Shown one piece after another: positions 56,964-64,000 of a stretch of 64,000 nucleotides of DNA (position 1 is the first letter of the stretch; every line of letters begins with the position of its first letter). The notes under the pieces are model-generated. The model was given only the letters and a program-made list of their open reading frames with translations. It ran no database searches and had not been told where the DNA came from. Position numbers and translations under genes: made by a program. Origin of the DNA: Candidatus Enterousia intestinigallinarum (GTDB lineage Bacteria; Pseudomonadota; Alphaproteobacteria; Rs-D84); NCBI GenBank assembly GCA_018716885.1, contig DVJI01000009.1:7448-71447 (forward strand), given 5' to 3'.

Positions 56964-56992
56964 AAAAACGCCCCAAATGGGGCGTTTTTATT
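56964..56992 (-). terminator. intrinsic terminator for the autotransporter gene
   Basis: hairpin aacgccccaaatggggcgtt with a flanking T-run. Confidence 0.6.
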
Positions 56993-59900
56993 TAGAAGTC
57001 GTATCTGAACTTCAACATACCGGTCTGTGAAGTGTAATCTTCGTGCAGATCCAAATCATAGTTCAACGATACTGTCAGACCACGCCATTCGGCAGTCAGG
57101 CCGATGCCAAATTCGCCGCCAAAGCGTGACAGACGATCGGCGTCGATGACGTATGATACGCTGCCCGGGGCGGTTATTGTCGCAACCGCTGCATCAGACA
57201 AGAAATCATATGTCGCCGCCGCACGCAGTTCCGGACGGAATTTCAATTCCATATCCGATTCGATTTCGAACGCGTAACGGATACCAGCAACACCGGTCAG
57301 ATAATCCATATCTGCGCCGTCAACGTGACCCAAAGCGACGTCATACGCGTCCTGGCTGATGTGCAGGTAACGGGCGCCGATTTCCGGGGTCAGACCAGAT
57401 GCGAAATCATAACCGGTCATAACCTGGCCACCGAACGAATCGACATCGTATTCGGATTCAAACTGAACACCGAACGGATTTGATGTTTCCGTATAGTTGC
57501 CCATTGTATAGTTCAACGCGGCATTGACATACCAGTTGTTCGGTTTGTATTGGCCGTACAGGAACAAGCTGTTCGATTCGATTTTCGTATCGCGAGAATC
57601 AGAATCAACGTCTGTATCGTTGTACGCATAACCGATACCGATTGTGTTTTTACCGTCAATCAATGCGTCTGCACCGACGGAAATACCGGTCGTGTCGCCC
57701 TTGAACTGGCCATTTAATTTAGAATGGTTATACAGACCCTGGGCCCAGATGCCATAATCTGCATTTGCCAAATCACCACCGCTGCGTCCAACTGTGCCGC
57801 CAGTCATACGGCCCGCCGCCAGTGACAGAACCTGGTTCTGGACGGATGACGAAATGGAATGTGCAACCGGTTTGTTTTCTGGATTCAGTTTAGCCGTTTC
57901 GTGTTCGACATAATCAACATTGCCTGCCGCCAGTTCAGTTTGGGCGCGCAATGAAATTGCAGTCAGAACATCGTCATCTGTATTGGCCAACACTGCGATT
58001 GTGGCTGCGCCCTGGTTGGACAGGCCGGTGTCTGCCGCGATATCTTCAACCGCCTTGATAGCGATTTCAATACCGTCCGCGCCATTGTTTATGACGTCGT
58101 ACGCCAGGCCAGCATCAATGGTGATGTCTTCGTGCGCAATGCCGCCGAATATGTCGTATGTGCCGACACTGCCGATTGTCAGTTGCAGTTTGCCGTTTTC
58201 ACCGGTTGTAATGCTGTCAGCCAACAATTTGCCATAGTTGTCGGAACTCAACATAGATGCGTTCAATGTACCGTCGATGTCGATGGATGCCTGTTCAACG
58301 GTTGTTGTGCCGATATCCAATGTTGCACCATCCGCAATGGTCAGTGTACCGTCACCGGTAATACCACCACCCAGCGTAGTTGTGCCGGATGCGACCGTCA
58401 TTGTGCCGATATTATGAATATCGTTTGCAACACCATCCGCCATATTGCCACTGAACACGTTTTCACCGTTCAGGGTCATAGCAACGGTGTTATATATTGC
58501 ACCACCGTTCACACCAGCTGTATTGTCGGTAAATGTTGCACCGTCAATCGTCAACGATGAATTTTCTGCCGATGCGCCGATACGTGTGGAAATTGCACCG
58601 CCGTATGTGCCGGATGAATTCTGGCTGAACACAGAATCACGAACTGTGGTGTTGGATTGGTCATACAAGAATATTGCGCCACCACCATTATTTGCATAAT
58701 AGGCGGGTTGACCTTCTTCAACATCCTCGATTTTTACCGTTCCAGTTGTTTTGTTCCCGATAAATTCAGAATTAGTAATCGTCATTGTCGCATCGGAAAC
58801 AATGGCGCCACCTTCGGCATCGACCGAGTTCGATTTAAATATTGATTCATCAATGTTTATCGTCGCGGTTGACCCATCGGCCTGAGATATCGCACCACCA
58901 GCAACAGCCGCCGTATTAGAACTGAATATTGAATTATTTATATTCAATTCGCCTGCGGCATTTGTTCCAACTGCAATGGCACCACCTATGCCAGCGGCGG
59001 TATCTGTTGCTTTGTTGCCAGAAAATGTGAAATTATTTAGTGCCAGATTTGTGTTCATTGAATTATAGAATATGGCACCACCCTGGGTTGCAGTATTATT
59101 TACAAATATAAAGTCACTGCCCAGATTCATATTATTGCTGCCCAGATATAATGCACCACCAGCTTTTGTACTGGAATTGGCAATGAACTGTGCGTAATCA
59201 GCGATTGTCAGATGTGAATCTGCATATGATGCTTTTATTGCACCGCCACCTGTTAGGGCTGCTTTGTTACCCTGGAACAAGGCGTCTTTGCCGATTGTCA
59301 AATTACCATTATTACCCAGGGATATTGCACCAGATTGTAAACCGCGTGTTCCGTGTGTGTTATCAACAAACTTTACATTGTCGCCGATTGTGGTTGTGGC
59401 ACCGGTGCCCATAAACAATGTGCCGTCGCCGGTGTTTCCAGAAAACGTAACATTGTCACCAATGTTTAACGTACCGGAATTGTATATTGCCCCACCGTCA
59501 CCGGTATCGGTTGAATTGCCACTGAATACGGTATTGTCTGCAACGGTCAGGGTGCCGCTGTTATATATTGCGCCACCTTGGCTGGCTGCATTTGTTGCGG
59601 TGTTATTTTTAAATGTTCCAGCAACGGACATTTCGCCAGCGTTATAAATTGCGCCGCCGTGACCACGTGTAGCAGTTGTGCTGTTGCCGTCAAATGTGCC
59701 ATCGACATTCATTGTTCCCAGATTGTAAATTGCACCACCTGTTTTGGCAGAATTTCCCGTAAACGTTGAACCAGATGCAATATTTACGGTGTTATAGAAA
59801 TCTGTTTTATTTTCAGCTTTGTCACTATTCAGGTTGGCAATGGCACCACCACGGTTTGCAGCCGTATTGCCGGTAAAATCAGTACGTCCCAGTGTCAGTT

Positions 59901-60456
59901 CAGTGCCACTTGTTGCGCCATTGGATTTGTCTGTCCAGATTGCGATTGCGCCACCGTCCGCTTCTGTGGAATTGGATTCAAATTTCGTGTTGTCACCGAT
60001 TGTGACCGTGCCAGCGGATTCAATACCCAGTGCACCACCCAGCCATACCGATGTATTGCCAGAAAATGTTGTCCCGTTTCCAAGTACAATATTTCTGTTT
60101 GATTCGGCATCTTCTGGGATTTTTACGTACAGACCACCAGACATCTTGTCAGAATGGTTATTTGTAAATGTCCAGCCATCACCCGCGACAAATCCATTTA
60201 ACGCCTTCATCGCACCGCCAGAATTTACGGATGAATTCTTATTAAATGTTACATTGTTGACCCCCGACGTTGTCAGTGAATCACCATATGTAATTGTCAA
60301 TCCCGCAGCATTCTGATTAGCATCGTCATTATTTGTTTGATTTTCTATTACTTGCCCTTCGGTTATATCAACTGCTGCAAACGCCGGCATAACGGCCAAC
60401 GCGGGCAGTACAGAGCAAATCTTTAGCAAATCGGCTAAATGTTTGTATCTGGACAT
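56992..60456 (-). CDS. Pmp-like (polymorphic membrane protein repeat) autotransporter adhesin (1154 aa)
   Basis: signal peptide; more than 15 reiterations of FxGN...GGAI(Y/A) (e.g. FTGNSAKTGGAIYNLG, FSGNSTDTGDGGAIYNSG); C-terminal beta-barrel region ending ...LKFRYDF. Confidence 0.8.
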   Translation of the reverse strand: MSRYKHLADLLKICSVLPALAVMPAFAAVDITEGQVIENQTNNDDANQNAAGLTITYGDSLTTSGVNNVTFNKNSSVNSGGAMKALNGFVAGDGWTFTNNHSDKMSGGLYVKIPEDAESNRNIVLGNGTTFSGNTSVWLGGALGIESAGTVTIGDNTKFESNSTEADGGAIAIWTDKSNGATSGTELTLGRTDFTGNTAANRGGAIANLNSDKAENKTDFYNTVNIASGSTFTGNSAKTGGAIYNLGTMNVDGTFDGNSTTATRGHGGAIYNAGEMSVAGTFKNNTATNAASQGGAIYNSGTLTVADNTVFSGNSTDTGDGGAIYNSGTLNIGDNVTFSGNTGDGTLFMGTGATTTIGDNVKFVDNTHGTRGLQSGAISLGNNGNLTIGKDALFQGNKAALTGGGAIKASYADSHLTIADYAQFIANSSTKAGGALYLGSNNMNLGSDFIFVNNTATQGGAIFYNSMNTNLALNNFTFSGNKATDTAAGIGGAIAVGTNAAGELNINNSIFSSNTAAVAGGAISQADGSTATINIDESIFKSNSVDAEGGAIVSDATMTITNSEFIGNKTTGTVKIEDVEEGQPAYYANNGGGAIFLYDQSNTTVRDSVFSQNSSGTYGGAISTRIGASAENSSLTIDGATFTDNTAGVNGGAIYNTVAMTLNGENVFSGNMADGVANDIHNIGTMTVASGTTTLGGGITGDGTLTIADGATLDIGTTTVEQASIDIDGTLNASMLSSDNYGKLLADSITTGENGKLQLTIGSVGTYDIFGGIAHEDITIDAGLAYDVINNGADGIEIAIKAVEDIAADTGLSNQGAATIAVLANTDDDVLTAISLRAQTELAAGNVDYVEHETAKLNPENKPVAHSISSSVQNQVLSLAAGRMTGGTVGRSGGDLANADYGIWAQGLYNHSKLNGQFKGDTTGISVGADALIDGKNTIGIGYAYNDTDVDSDSRDTKIESNSLFLYGQYKPNNWYVNAALNYTMGNYTETSNPFGVQFESEYDVDSFGGQVMTGYDFASGLTPEIGARYLHISQDAYDVALGHVDGADMDYLTGVAGIRYAFEIESDMELKFRPELRAAATYDFLSDAAVATITAPGSVSYVIDADRLSRFGGEFGIGLTAEWRGLTVSLNYDLDLHEDYTSQTGMLKFRYDF

Positions 60457-60850
60457 ATTTTCTCCTTTTGTATATAAACTGTCCTTCGATTTTTCAGCGT
60501 ATCACAGTTGAAAGAAATCGCAATAAAATTTGTCAGGATTTTTTCCCCAATAAAAACGCCGCCAAATCAGCACAGATGTGGCGGTCGGGGAGTTAAGAAA
60601 ATCAACCAAATCGTGACCCCGCCAGTTTTCGGGAAACCCTGTTTTATAACTGACGGCCCCCCGACCTGTATTGCGGGGTGCGGGATAATAAAAGGCGCCC
60701 AAATCGCGCCGTAATTTATCCCCAGGCGGATTACGACATAACGATATGTCGGATTTGGTTAGGTTTTCTTACGACCCCGAACCCACATCCCTGTGGATTC
60801 GTAATTTAAGTATACGTTGACAGTTACGATAAATCAAACAAAAAAATAGA

Positions 60851-60890: not shown

Positions 60891-60964
60891 TGGGGCATAG
60901 TTTAACGGTAGAACTCCGGACTCTGACTCCGTCAGTGTTGGTTCGAATCCAGCTGCCCCAACCA
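60891..60964 (+). tRNA. tRNA-Gln (anticodon CUG)
   Basis: U1:A72 acceptor TGGGGCA/TGCCCCA typical of tRNA-Gln, anticodon loop CUCUGAC, T-loop GGTTCGAAT, encoded CCA. Confidence 0.8.
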
Positions 60965-61784
60965 AGATTGACAACCGTTCAGTTCCATCAGGATGTTGAA
61001 CGGTTTTCTTATTGAATATACTAATTTTTTATTTTTCAATTCGCAGTTCGAAAGCAGCAGGTTCAAAAGTGCACGTTTTTGTTCTACTTTCGAACTTTTG
61101 AACAGTTCCGACGCGTGTGACGCCACAGATAATAACGATTCAACCGTTGTTATAAAGTCGTCATCTGCCTTGGAATGTGCTTCTAAACGCACGCCTACAT
61201 CATACAATTCTTTCTCTATATCATTCTTTTTATCTGCGTATTCTTCTTGTGTAATACTGCCGGTCAGTAAAAAATCTAACAGGCGACTTCTTTTGGACTT
61301 TAGGGCATCTTGTTTTTTACGCAGATTGTCTATCTCTGCCAGCGCATAGGCGTTTTCCGCCTGTGATATATTGGTCAGACACTGTACCACTTCCTGCATA
61401 ATATCGCGTGGAAAAGAGAGTTTATTCAAAATTTCATCCTGAATCTGCTGCAACAAATCGTTTTCATTAATCGCTGGTTGTGTACAATTACCCTTAAAAT
61501 GTGAACAAGATAGATATGTATAGGTCTTGCCGCTGGGCTTTGTCTTTGTGTCGCTGGTAATCCGCAACAATTGCAATTTTTTCTCGTTGTGCTTTAACAA
61601 AGTTCAGCATTTCAACGAACTTTTTACGGTCGCCCTTTGTTGAACTCTCGGTAATTTGAAAGGTTTTAAGCAACGTTAACCCATTGCGCTGGATATATTT
61701 GTTCAGATTATCCAGTTGGGCATCAATAGACATACCATTTTCTTGCTCACGCGATGAAACACGAGCAAGTATTACTGCTTTCAT
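60932..61784 (-). pseudogene. large serine recombinase (integrase), frameshifted and internally truncated
   Basis: N-terminal resolvase catalytic domain MKAVILARVSSREQ...SIDAQ (61784-61494, frame a) and C-terminal zinc-ribbon/coiled-coil part YTYLSCSHFKGNC... (61600-60932, frame b); total span about 285 aa against about 450-550 for intact enzymes; the 3' end overlaps tRNA-Gln by 33 nt. Confidence 0.55.
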
Positions 61785-61809
61785 GTTATTCACCGAACAA
61801 AATATTGTT

Positions 61810-62553
61810 TTAACAGAGTCCAAAAGCGTTTAATAATAGCTTAATTGTTGGAATTTGATTTATATTGGCAAGCAAAACCTCACGTCCAACTTTAGTATTT
61901 AAAAATCGTTTAAAAACAATTTCATTTTTTTGTCTGTTTATATCGTTAATTTTAAATTCTATTGATTTGATGGTTTGCTTATAATTGGTTTCTTCTCCGG
62001 TTAATTCTTGCTTGGCATTGATATAACGTGCAATTTTAGTGTCGCAAGCATCTATGAATTTTTTATCGTCTTCTGTTAGCGTGACAGCAGATATTTCTGC
62101 ATCTAACATTTCTTTCATTTTTTTTGTCGTTTTTCCGCGCAAAATTTTCTCAGAGACGCCAAGAAGCATTAAAATTAATCCCTCTATAGAATTTGGCGAA
62201 GAAACAATTAAGATGGGGTTTTTATTGTTAATATTTGTATTTTGTAAATCTGTATACGGAATGTCTTTTAATTTTCCGTCGGTTAAATGCCATCTTTTTT
62301 CTAATGCCGCTAAAACATCTTCACTTATTCGCAGTTCTTTAACAAATTGAAAGTCTTCGTCAAAAAACGCAAATACAACCTGACCATAATCAGAGCACTT
62401 AAAAGCGGTATTTAACACGTTATCAGCGTCCTTGCCATAACAAGGTTGTAAATTTAACCTAAAATCGCTAAATTGCCCGATATGTTCTAGAAAATATTTT
62501 TCTCTATATCCCTCATGAACTACCAGTATAGATTTGCGTTTTTTCTTTACCAT
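61810..62553 (-). CDS. Toprim-like (RloB/DUF4276/AbiLii-like) partner protein
   Basis: 247 aa; N-terminal ...KSILVVHEGYREKYFLEHI (EGxxE motif of OLD/RloB-type Toprim); ATG at 62553 with a GGAGG RBS inside the 3' end of the upstream ATPase gene. Confidence 0.5.
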   Translation of the reverse strand: MVKKKRKSILVVHEGYREKYFLEHIGQFSDFRLNLQPCYGKDADNVLNTAFKCSDYGQVVFAFFDEDFQFVKELRISEDVLAALEKRWHLTDGKLKDIPYTDLQNTNINNKNPILIVSSPNSIEGLILMLLGVSEKILRGKTTKKMKEMLDAEISAVTLTEDDKKFIDACDTKIARYINAKQELTGEETNYKQTIKSIEFKINDINRQKNEIVFKRFLNTKVGREVLLANINQIPTIKLLLNAFGLC

Positions 62554-62555
62554 TA

Positions 62556-63746
62556 TCAAGCCTCCTTTATCTTTGGGCGGCCATCATATTCTCCCGCTAG
62601 ATATTTTATGAAATAATTTTCATCGTTTCTAACTCCTTGAATGTCATCTAATCTCGTAAGCTCTGTTTCGCTTTTTGAGTTTTTTTCCGCTATAAATATC
62701 TGTGTCTTCGTTAAATTTTGTAGAAACCATGGGTTGTGCGTGGTAAACAAAATCTGTGAATTATTCGGATTTTTTTCTGGGTCTAAAAATCTATTGATAA
62801 TTCTGCTTGTTATATCAGGATGAAGACTTTGTTCAAGCTCATCAGCTATTAACAACCCGCCGTCTCTAAAGATTTTATATAGGTGTACGAACAAATCAAT
62901 ATAAGACAAGGTGCCACTAGATTCTTGAAGTAGTAACAAAGGATGAACCTCTCCATCAATAGTATGTTTGGTCACTATTGCAGAATATTCTTCTTCACCA
63001 TTTACATCAGAATTTATTTTTTGTAATTTTCCAAACCCTAATTCAGAAATACCAGTATCTATGTTTTTTAGTTCTTCCATTAATTCTTCAAATAACAACT
63101 TATCTTTTTCTAATTCTTTTGATATTTCGCTAAGTCTACGCAATGGATTATGTTGGCCAATAACGACTTCTGGGCGAACATTAGTTAAAAGTTTTTTTAC
63201 TGTTCCTAATTCACCTTTGCCAAAATAATTTAGTTCCAATAATAATGACAACAAAGACATGTCATCGCGTAAGCGCTCTAAATCTTGTGTATTGACAGAG
63301 AGCGTGTTTTGTATGCGTTTGCCTGATTCTCGTTTAAAAATCGTATTATATCGCTTTGTGTTTTCTTTTAGTTCTCCTAACCATTCTTTTTGAACTTCTC
63401 CCTTAAAAAGGCCAATTTCATATTTATATTGTTTTTGGTTGTCTATAAATTCTGTAGAAAATTCTGTAGGCGCATTTTCACAACAAAAATGTGTATCTAC
63501 ATTACCTTCTCCTCTTAAAGAAGGAACAGAATAAGAACGACAAATATATCGCAAAAAAAACACGATAGCCTTTAGGATATTGCTTTTTCCACTAGCGTTT
63601 GGCCCGACTATACATGCAATATTATTTATAGCCTTGCCTCCAACCTCAGAATAAGCATTTTTTCTTTGGCTTTCAGATATTTCAAAGTTGACGACAATTT
63701 CTTTACCAATAGACCTATAATTTGTTATTTTAAAGTTCAAAAACAT
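62556..63746 (-). CDS. AAA_21/ABC-type ATPase (AbiLi/AriA/OLD-N-terminal-like)
   Basis: FKITNYRSIGKE...GPNASGKSNILKAI (Walker A), LLIADELEQSLHPD (Walker B/D-loop), LFTTHNP (H-loop); ATG at 63746 (a longer ORF runs to 63791). Confidence 0.7.
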   Translation of the reverse strand: MFLNFKITNYRSIGKEIVVNFEISESQRKNAYSEVGGKAINNIACIVGPNASGKSNILKAIVFFLRYICRSYSVPSLRGEGNVDTHFCCENAPTEFSTEFIDNQKQYKYEIGLFKGEVQKEWLGELKENTKRYNTIFKRESGKRIQNTLSVNTQDLERLRDDMSLLSLLLELNYFGKGELGTVKKLLTNVRPEVVIGQHNPLRRLSEISKELEKDKLLFEELMEELKNIDTGISELGFGKLQKINSDVNGEEEYSAIVTKHTIDGEVHPLLLLQESSGTLSYIDLFVHLYKIFRDGGLLIADELEQSLHPDITSRIINRFLDPEKNPNNSQILFTTHNPWFLQNLTKTQIFIAEKNSKSETELTRLDDIQGVRNDENYFIKYLAGEYDGRPKIKEA

Positions 63747-64000
63747 GGTTTTGCTCCATTTTTGACGATTTTCTGTTAAATTTTGCCTCAAAATATTATA
63801 AAAGTCAATAAAAAACGAACCTTATGAAAAGGTTCGCTAAACTTATTTTAATTTATAACACTTTTGCTGTAGATAATACTTTTGTATGTATATTTCAAGG
63901 GCATAAGACCTATTTTTATGACATTTTCATGACACTTATTGCAAAAAACTTTTACCTCATTTGACAACCTTCTAAAGCAATTTCTATTAATAAATCGCTT

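Follow-up and report, generated by a model that had tools for sequence, protein, structure and literature searches.

Pairs of an ATPase and a Toprim protein are a widespread defence architecture, the mechanism of which is understood for PARIS, OLD and Gabija only and is still open for AbiL/RloAB (PMC13064643). AbiL has been placed alongside PARIS among the systems that combine an ABC ATPase with a TOPRIM protein, and anti-phage phenotypes have been demonstrated for both (PMC13064643, PMC11464382). In PARIS, a hexamer of AriA sequesters AriB, which is released by Ocr and cleaves tRNA-Lys as a dimer (PMC11464382). The NetFlax pairs, each consisting of an AAA antitoxin and a TOPRIM_OLD toxin, were validated by neutralisation assays (PMC10440598). 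The Toprim superfamily also includes RloB and DUF4276 (PMC12065111).

Here, a pair of this kind was analysed at one end of a 64,000-nucleotide stretch of DNA (the window). The host is an uncultured gut alphaproteobacterium. The preliminary description had proposed a candidate module of an ATPase and a split Toprim nuclease, possibly a divergent variant; the module can now be placed in the AbiL/RloAB class, of which it is indeed a divergent representative by sequence comparison.

The ATPase gene and its coupling to the partner gene

The first gene of the pair, identified by its open reading frame, HMM matches and motifs, encodes an AbiLi-like ABC-type (AAA_21) ATPase of 396 amino acids (62556..63746, minus strand). 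At full length the open reading frame extends over 62556..63791 on the minus strand and gives 411 amino acids from a TTG start. The likely start is the ATG at 63746, with GGAG 9 nt upstream, and the resulting 396 amino acids are the length common to every ATPase homologue found. Walker A (GPNASGKS, G48-S55, 63605-63582), Walker B (LLIADE, L298-E303, 62855-62838) and the H-loop (TTHNP, H337 at 62738-62736) were all located on the minus strand, together with a signature-like motif, ESSGT (ES-GT, residues 275-279). All four motifs are kept in homologues with 31-33% identity.

Comparison with Pfam gave matches to AAA_21 (3e-29) and AAA_15 (4e-15), in agreement with the type assigned to the ATPase in the preliminary description. 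Among PADLOC models, AbiLi (PDLC02335) was the top of 116 matches (E = 1.2e-69, 232.8 bits), and the runner-up models AriA, HEC-01A, PDC-M07A, GajA and PtuA all scored ≤100 bits.

The stop codon of the ATPase gene (TGA, 62558-62556) is followed by 'TA' and then by the ATG of the partner gene at 62553, leaving a gap of 2 nt. The ribosome-binding site of the partner gene had been described as lying inside the 3′ end of the ATPase gene, and the Shine-Dalgarno sequence AAGGAGG was found there (62561..62567, minus strand), 7 nt before the ATG. On the other side of the pair, a terminator-like hairpin with a 10-bp stem and a T-run, recognised from the sequence (63814..63838, minus strand), closes the upstream gene, so that the ATPase and its partner appear to form their own transcription unit. 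A promoter-like site (TTGACT-17 nt-CAAAAT, 63780..63808, minus strand), which is a consensus match only, precedes the ATPase start by ~35 nt.

The two open reading frames are not chance ones, given 396 and 247 codons in DNA of 33% GC together with low dN/dS. In comparison with 68-83% identical homologues (loci L010 and L016), dN/dS was 0.06-0.09 for the ATPase and 0.11 for the partner; purifying selection acts on both genes. The partner changes faster: its amino acid identities are 68% and 48% where those of the ATPase are 82-83% and 73%.

The partner protein, its family and its C-terminal hairpin

The second gene (61810..62553, minus strand) encodes a protein of 247 amino acids, which HMM, profile and motif evidence marks as an RloB/AbiLii-like Toprim-type putative nuclease. 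Its N-terminus reads MVKKKRKSILVVHEGYREKYF. The sole PADLOC match was to AbiLii (PDLC02337, E = 1.6e-6), a weak match of 26.8 bits that covers the core only. The window partner has no match to Pfam RloB (PF13707), DUF4276, DUF4435 or any other Toprim-clan model even at E ≤ 1, and no relevant match was obtained among Pfam, NCBIfam or PHROG profiles. Thus, of the profile matches envisaged in the preliminary description, those of the ATPase to AAA_21 and AAA_15 and those of the pair to the PADLOC AbiLi and AbiLii models were found, whereas those of the partner to RloB, DUF4276 and DUF4435 were not.

The partner family is rare. A word-indexed search of 5.8 billion proteins returned four close clusters, and nine when the family profile was used instead, none of them named in either case. 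When 1.84 billion representatives were searched exhaustively with a profile, 85 matches were obtained, mostly of ~200 amino acids and covering residues 1-155 only. Within an alignment of 65 relatives, the two PADLOC AbiLii models recover 29 and 17 sequences and Pfam RloB recovers 12; neither the window partner nor any of the 65 matches DUF4435 (PF14491) or PADLOC AriB. Alignment of the family profile by hhalign with two Pfam-verified RloB proteins gave probabilities of 88.9% (E = 2.4e-6) and 93.3% (E = 2.8e-7); the EGxxE and P..E motifs are in register both times, and DxD in the Rhizobium one. Both of these RloB proteins sit downstream of ATPase homologues, on Rhizobium and Klebsiella plasmids. 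The earlier assignment of the partner to the RloB/AbiLii type is upheld by the AbiLii match and by this profile alignment.

The hallmarks of Toprim domains are an invariant Glu after β1, a Gly after β2 and a DxD motif after β3 (PMC6755086). Across the 65 relatives, E14-G15, G40, D65 and D67 are invariant, and position 18 is Glu in 63 sequences and Asp in two, which agrees with the EGxxE motif noted before. An acidic residue occupies position 124 in all 65; K147, N107 and P120 are likewise found in 65/65, W88 in 64/65 and S118 in 60/65. The codons of the putative catalytic residues lie on the minus strand at 62514-62512 (E14), 62361-62353 (D65 to D67), 62184-62182 (E124) and 62115-62113 (K147). 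E14/E18, D65/D67, E124 and K147 parallel E400/E404, D455/D457, E508 and K562 of BpOLD, and the acidic ones among them also E26/D30, D88/E90 and E122 of AriB, in line with the two-metal sites of OLD and AriB.

An AlphaFold model of the partner, built from the 65-sequence alignment, reached a pLDDT of 96.7 and a pTM of 0.91, and contains strands 8-13, 32-37, 60-65 and 114-118 with a helix after each. E14, G40 and D65/D67 come directly after the first three of these predicted strands, which is the Toprim arrangement of motifs. The structure prediction that had been suggested as a check gave a confident model with strands before the Toprim motifs, but a Foldseek search of this model against the PDB returned nothing at E ≤ 1e-3. 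The best globular structural neighbour was PH0156, a PDB entry reported as an HHpred match of lactococcal AriB (PMC11381338); taken together, the fold searches gave weak support at most. Two Foldseek matches to topoisomerase VI (E = 0.37-0.5) were too weak for use. In searches against PDB chains, the single partner sequence found no match, and the 65-sequence profile found only PU.1 ETS-domain matches (E about 0.01), which were discarded as spurious. The preliminary description had allowed for a partner lacking any Toprim likeness; the invariant Toprim motif set and the RloB profile alignment speak against this, and the identification of the partner as a Toprim-type putative nuclease is supported by these comparisons.

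The partner carries a C-terminal helical hairpin (residues ~161-221) that is specific to a rare subfamily, comprising 7 of the 65 family representatives. Members of this long-tailed subfamily extend for 82-88 amino acids beyond position 160, compared to 33-56 in other relatives, and R216-F217 of an FKRFL motif are invariant among them. Their sources are gut and other metagenomes only. The hairpin is the sole distinctive feature of what is otherwise an expected AbiL/RloAB-type pair.

The tRNA-Gln island and the distribution of the pair

The GC content is 0.30-0.36 over positions 61000-64000 and 0.42-0.52 over the remainder of the window. Directly next to the pair lies the pseudogene of a large serine recombinase (60932..61784, minus strand), present as two fragments, an N-terminal Resolvase part and a C-terminal Zn-ribbon/coiled-coil part. 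An internal deletion of about 652 bp, with an 8-nt overlap at its junction, has put the two fragments into different frames; in contigs of the same species (L001-L004) the recombinase is intact, with 501 amino acids. The 3′ end of the recombinase reading frame overlaps by 33 nt the 3′ end of a tRNA-Gln(CTG) gene (60891..60964, plus strand), which marks the boundary of the island and its attachment site.

The whole island could be delimited in the contigs of the same species, the flanks of which are 98% identical. It is a low-GC element of ~8 kb that ends at tRNA-Gln(CTG). Besides the ATPase-partner pair and the serine recombinase, it encodes a PIN_8 protein and five small unknown proteins. The low-GC island claimed in the preliminary description is thereby confirmed and given its extent. 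No defence-island context was seen among the other island genes, except for the PIN_8 protein, which lies outside the window.

In another species, the module is present with 95% nucleotide identity between flanks that are 65-80% identical, a difference that points to recent transfer. A 68% identical relative adjoins tRNA-Gln(TTG), and a 48% identical relative lies in a 7-kb low-GC patch without a recombinase, which also ends at tRNA-Gln(CTG). The module is horizontally mobile. We suggest that it entered this genome as low-GC cargo of the ~8-kb serine-recombinase island, integrated at tRNA-Gln. The recombinase is by now dead and the island would for that reason be fixed, while the pair remains under purifying selection.

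Pairing elsewhere was counted over those metagenomic loci of the long-tailed subfamily (9-sequence subfamily alignment) in which about 200 nt or more were available upstream. In all 31 of these loci, a homologous ATPase gene comes first and ends 1-14 nt before the partner gene. The ATPase is also upstream, with a 1-nt overlap, in two distant relatives of about 30% identity (P0069 and P0091, at loci L014 and L015), and on plasmids ATPase homologues of 27-33% identity are followed by genuine RloB proteins. Elsewhere the pair forms a low-GC cassette (0.33-0.40) amid unrelated genes at 0.42-0.54 GC, its neighbours including seryl-tRNA synthetase, MFS transporters, a glycosyltransferase and a PLP enzyme. 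The two genes are thus strictly paired, usually low in GC and set among unrelated housekeeping genes. Conservation of the pair at the same position in island-free relatives, which the preliminary description had considered, was not observed: the pair was found in low-GC islands or cassettes and never among conserved core genes. The partner family itself showed no sign of being phage-borne, as no match was obtained when phage and plasmid collections were searched with it by tblastn, nor from PHROGs or a scan of IMG/VR.

Relation to described systems and proposed mechanism

The pair resembles AbiL (AbiLi and AbiLii) of Lactococcus lactis pND861, in which an ABC/Rad50-like ATPase is likewise followed by a small Toprim/OLD-like protein on mobile DNA. 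Unlike AbiL, the window partner has the additional helical hairpin at its C-terminus (about 45 amino acids), and the pair, known here from its genes alone, belongs to a Gram-negative gut alphaproteobacterium, where it is carried not by a plasmid but by an island at a chromosomal tRNA-Gln gene. RloA/RloB (PF13707), from Campylobacter type I restriction-modification loci and many plasmids, shares with it a homologous ATPase and a partner related at profile level; however, the window partner falls below PF13707 even at E ≤ 1. There is no type I restriction-modification context, as neither the window nor the complete island of L001 contains hsd genes.

PARIS (AriA and AriB) has the same split architecture of ABC ATPase and Toprim protein. 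The acidic set E-x3-(D/E), DxD/DxE and a later E is common to the partner and AriB (E26, D30, D88, E90, E122), as is PH0156 as a structural neighbour, the latter for lactococcal AriB. In contrast to PARIS, the ATPase is smaller (396 versus about 450-500 amino acids), and although PADLOC AriA models match it with E-values of 6.9e-29 and 1.3e-15, the better of them aligns only as a generic AAA_21-like model does. Membership of PARIS was rejected, since the partner lacks DUF4435 and has no PADLOC AriB match.

These comparisons confirm that the ATPase and its partner belong, as a divergent pair, to the known AbiL/RloAB class. By PADLOC-style criteria the pair is AbiL-type: it has an AbiLi-type ATPase and an AbiLii-type partner (the latter by a weak match), adjacent on the same strand with the ATPase first.

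We consider it probable that the pair is a two-gene anti-phage module of AbiL/RloAB type, acting in an abortive-infection or toxin-antitoxin-like manner. PARIS is the best mechanistic template for it, by analogy. The AbiLi-like, ABC/Rad50-like ATPase would be made together with the small metal-dependent Toprim nuclease through translational coupling. On the model of PARIS and the NetFlax pairs, an oligomer of the ATPase may keep the nuclease inactive and serve as the sensor of infection. A phage-derived trigger would then, via ATP binding or hydrolysis, free or activate the nuclease, and the freed enzyme might cut nucleic acid of the host or the phage, either tRNA or DNA, so that growth and phage production stop. 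Cleavage is expected at a two-metal site formed by E14, E18, D65, D67 and E124, with K147. We infer the nuclease activity, its substrate, the trigger and the defence phenotype, and likewise, purely by analogy, the step in which the nuclease is sequestered and released.

The main rival is a constitutive complex of the OLD/Gabija kind that would act on invading DNA directly, recognising and cutting it under the control of ATP or nucleotide levels, and would release no toxin. In OLD and GajA the ATPase and Toprim domains are fused in one polypeptide, whereas here they are encoded by two separate open reading frames, and Class 2 OLD and GajA have a helicase partner, whereas no UvrD/GajB-like helicase is found next to this pair. 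OLD/Gabija membership was rejected on these two grounds. A constitutive complex is also made unlikely by the AbiLi match of the ATPase, which lies far above those to GajA and OLD models (233 versus about 47-52 bits), and by the behaviour of the split ATPase and Toprim systems studied so far, PARIS and NetFlax, which are pairs of toxin and neutraliser.

Alternatively, the pair could be a pure addiction (toxin-antitoxin) cassette that stabilises its carrier and has no role against phages. It is a minimal two-gene cassette found in many unrelated contexts, it directly adjoins the island recombinase, and NetFlax classes such pairs as toxin-antitoxin systems. On the other hand, strong purifying selection on the pair persists after inactivation of the recombinase, and the homologous classes AbiL and PARIS have anti-phage phenotypes (PMC13064643, PMC11464382), which together leave a purely addictive role with a small probability. 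Addiction and anti-phage roles of the pair are compatible and not mutually exclusive. That the locus is instead a housekeeping SMC, RecF or ABC-type ATPase beside an unrelated small protein (of DNA repair or transport, for example) is barely credible, since the weak local matches to SMC_N, RecF and ABC_tran span ~25-30 residues of the P-loop region around Walker A and lie far below the curated cut-offs, none of which the ATPase reaches, in contrast to the housekeeping scenario of the preliminary description, and since the genes are low in GC, horizontally transferred and patchy in distribution and the partner has an invariant Toprim catalytic set.

Within the preferred reading as an AbiL/RloAB-type anti-phage module, a more speculative proposal concerns the hairpin. 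The 247-amino-acid partners might constitute a separate, rare, long-tailed AbiL-like subtype, with the hairpin as a new regulatory element, either a latch that docks on the ATPase or a dimerisation arm; we regard this as doubtful. If true, such a latch or arm would imply a mechanism of sensing and release unlike those of PARIS and of classical AbiL/RloAB.

The locus records a defence cassette and a serine-recombinase tRNA-Gln island in uncultured gut Alphaproteobacteria, and is otherwise the expected kind of find. The pair is compact (396 and 247 amino acids) and strictly coupled, its catalytic set is fully kept, and the structure of its effector is predicted very confidently. It is a reasonable candidate for testing whether sequestration and release of the PARIS kind may operate in AbiL-type systems.

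Island boundary and recombinase remnant

The low-GC island that carries the AbiLi-like ATPase and its RloB/AbiLii-like putative nuclease partner is bounded by a tRNA-Gln gene (window 60891-60964, + strand). Islands of this low-GC kind are repeatedly bounded by tRNA-Gln: three lineages have the CTG anticodon and a fourth has TTG. Among the loci compared, the boundary tRNA-Gln lies at ~12240-12316 in L001 (a same-species contig), L009 and L010, and at 14028-14101 in L005. The final 33 nt of the adjacent recombinase ORF overlap the 3' end of the tRNA, which suggests that tRNA-Gln genes are targeted by a serine-recombinase element.

In the window, the large serine recombinase (60932-61823, - strand) survives as a pseudogene: ~652 bp have been deleted from within the gene, leaving an 8-nt overlap at the junction (61559-61566). 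The deletion takes out approximately residues 76-290 and shifts the reading frame. The recombinase is whole in the same-species contigs L001-L004 (501 aa; Resolvase, Recombinase and Zn_ribbon_recom domains).

Sequences flanking the island

Between the tRNA-Gln gene and the start of an autotransporter gene, a sub-threshold match to sRNA-Xcc1 was found (60575-60666, - strand; Rfam score 39.3 bits, where the gathering threshold is 53; E = 2.8e-4). This intergenic site may be a small RNA, a leader element or a chance match. The Pmp-repeat (GGAI-type) autotransporter (56992-60456, - strand) has 1154 aa, and its L001 counterpart 1034 aa. The segment at ~58510-59690 could not be aligned to L001, while the rest is 96-98% identical, indicating strain-to-strain variation in the repeat region of the passenger domain.

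Remaining island genes and phage relatives of the ATPase

The upstream part of the island, which lies beyond the window, was examined in L001 (4153-8552). Its genes specify a 357-aa PIN_8/PIN_12 protein (E = 1.4e-52) and five short proteins of 181, 80, 171, 159 and 145 aa, for which Pfam gave sub-threshold matches only (E = 8e-4 to 5e-3) and PHROG no match. These could provide element functions or be additional defence genes. Proteins of matching size (145 and 159/160 aa), which may be their counterparts, occupy equivalent positions in the 68%-identity version of the island (L016-L018).

No phage-borne relatives of the partner were found, in contrast to the ATPase, which matches phrog_5836, a family of phage proteins of unknown function (E = 1.2e-57; residues 5-406 of the 1071-position profile), and also, at 27% identity, unannotated contigs of human-faecal phages. 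The ATPase thus has phage-borne relatives.
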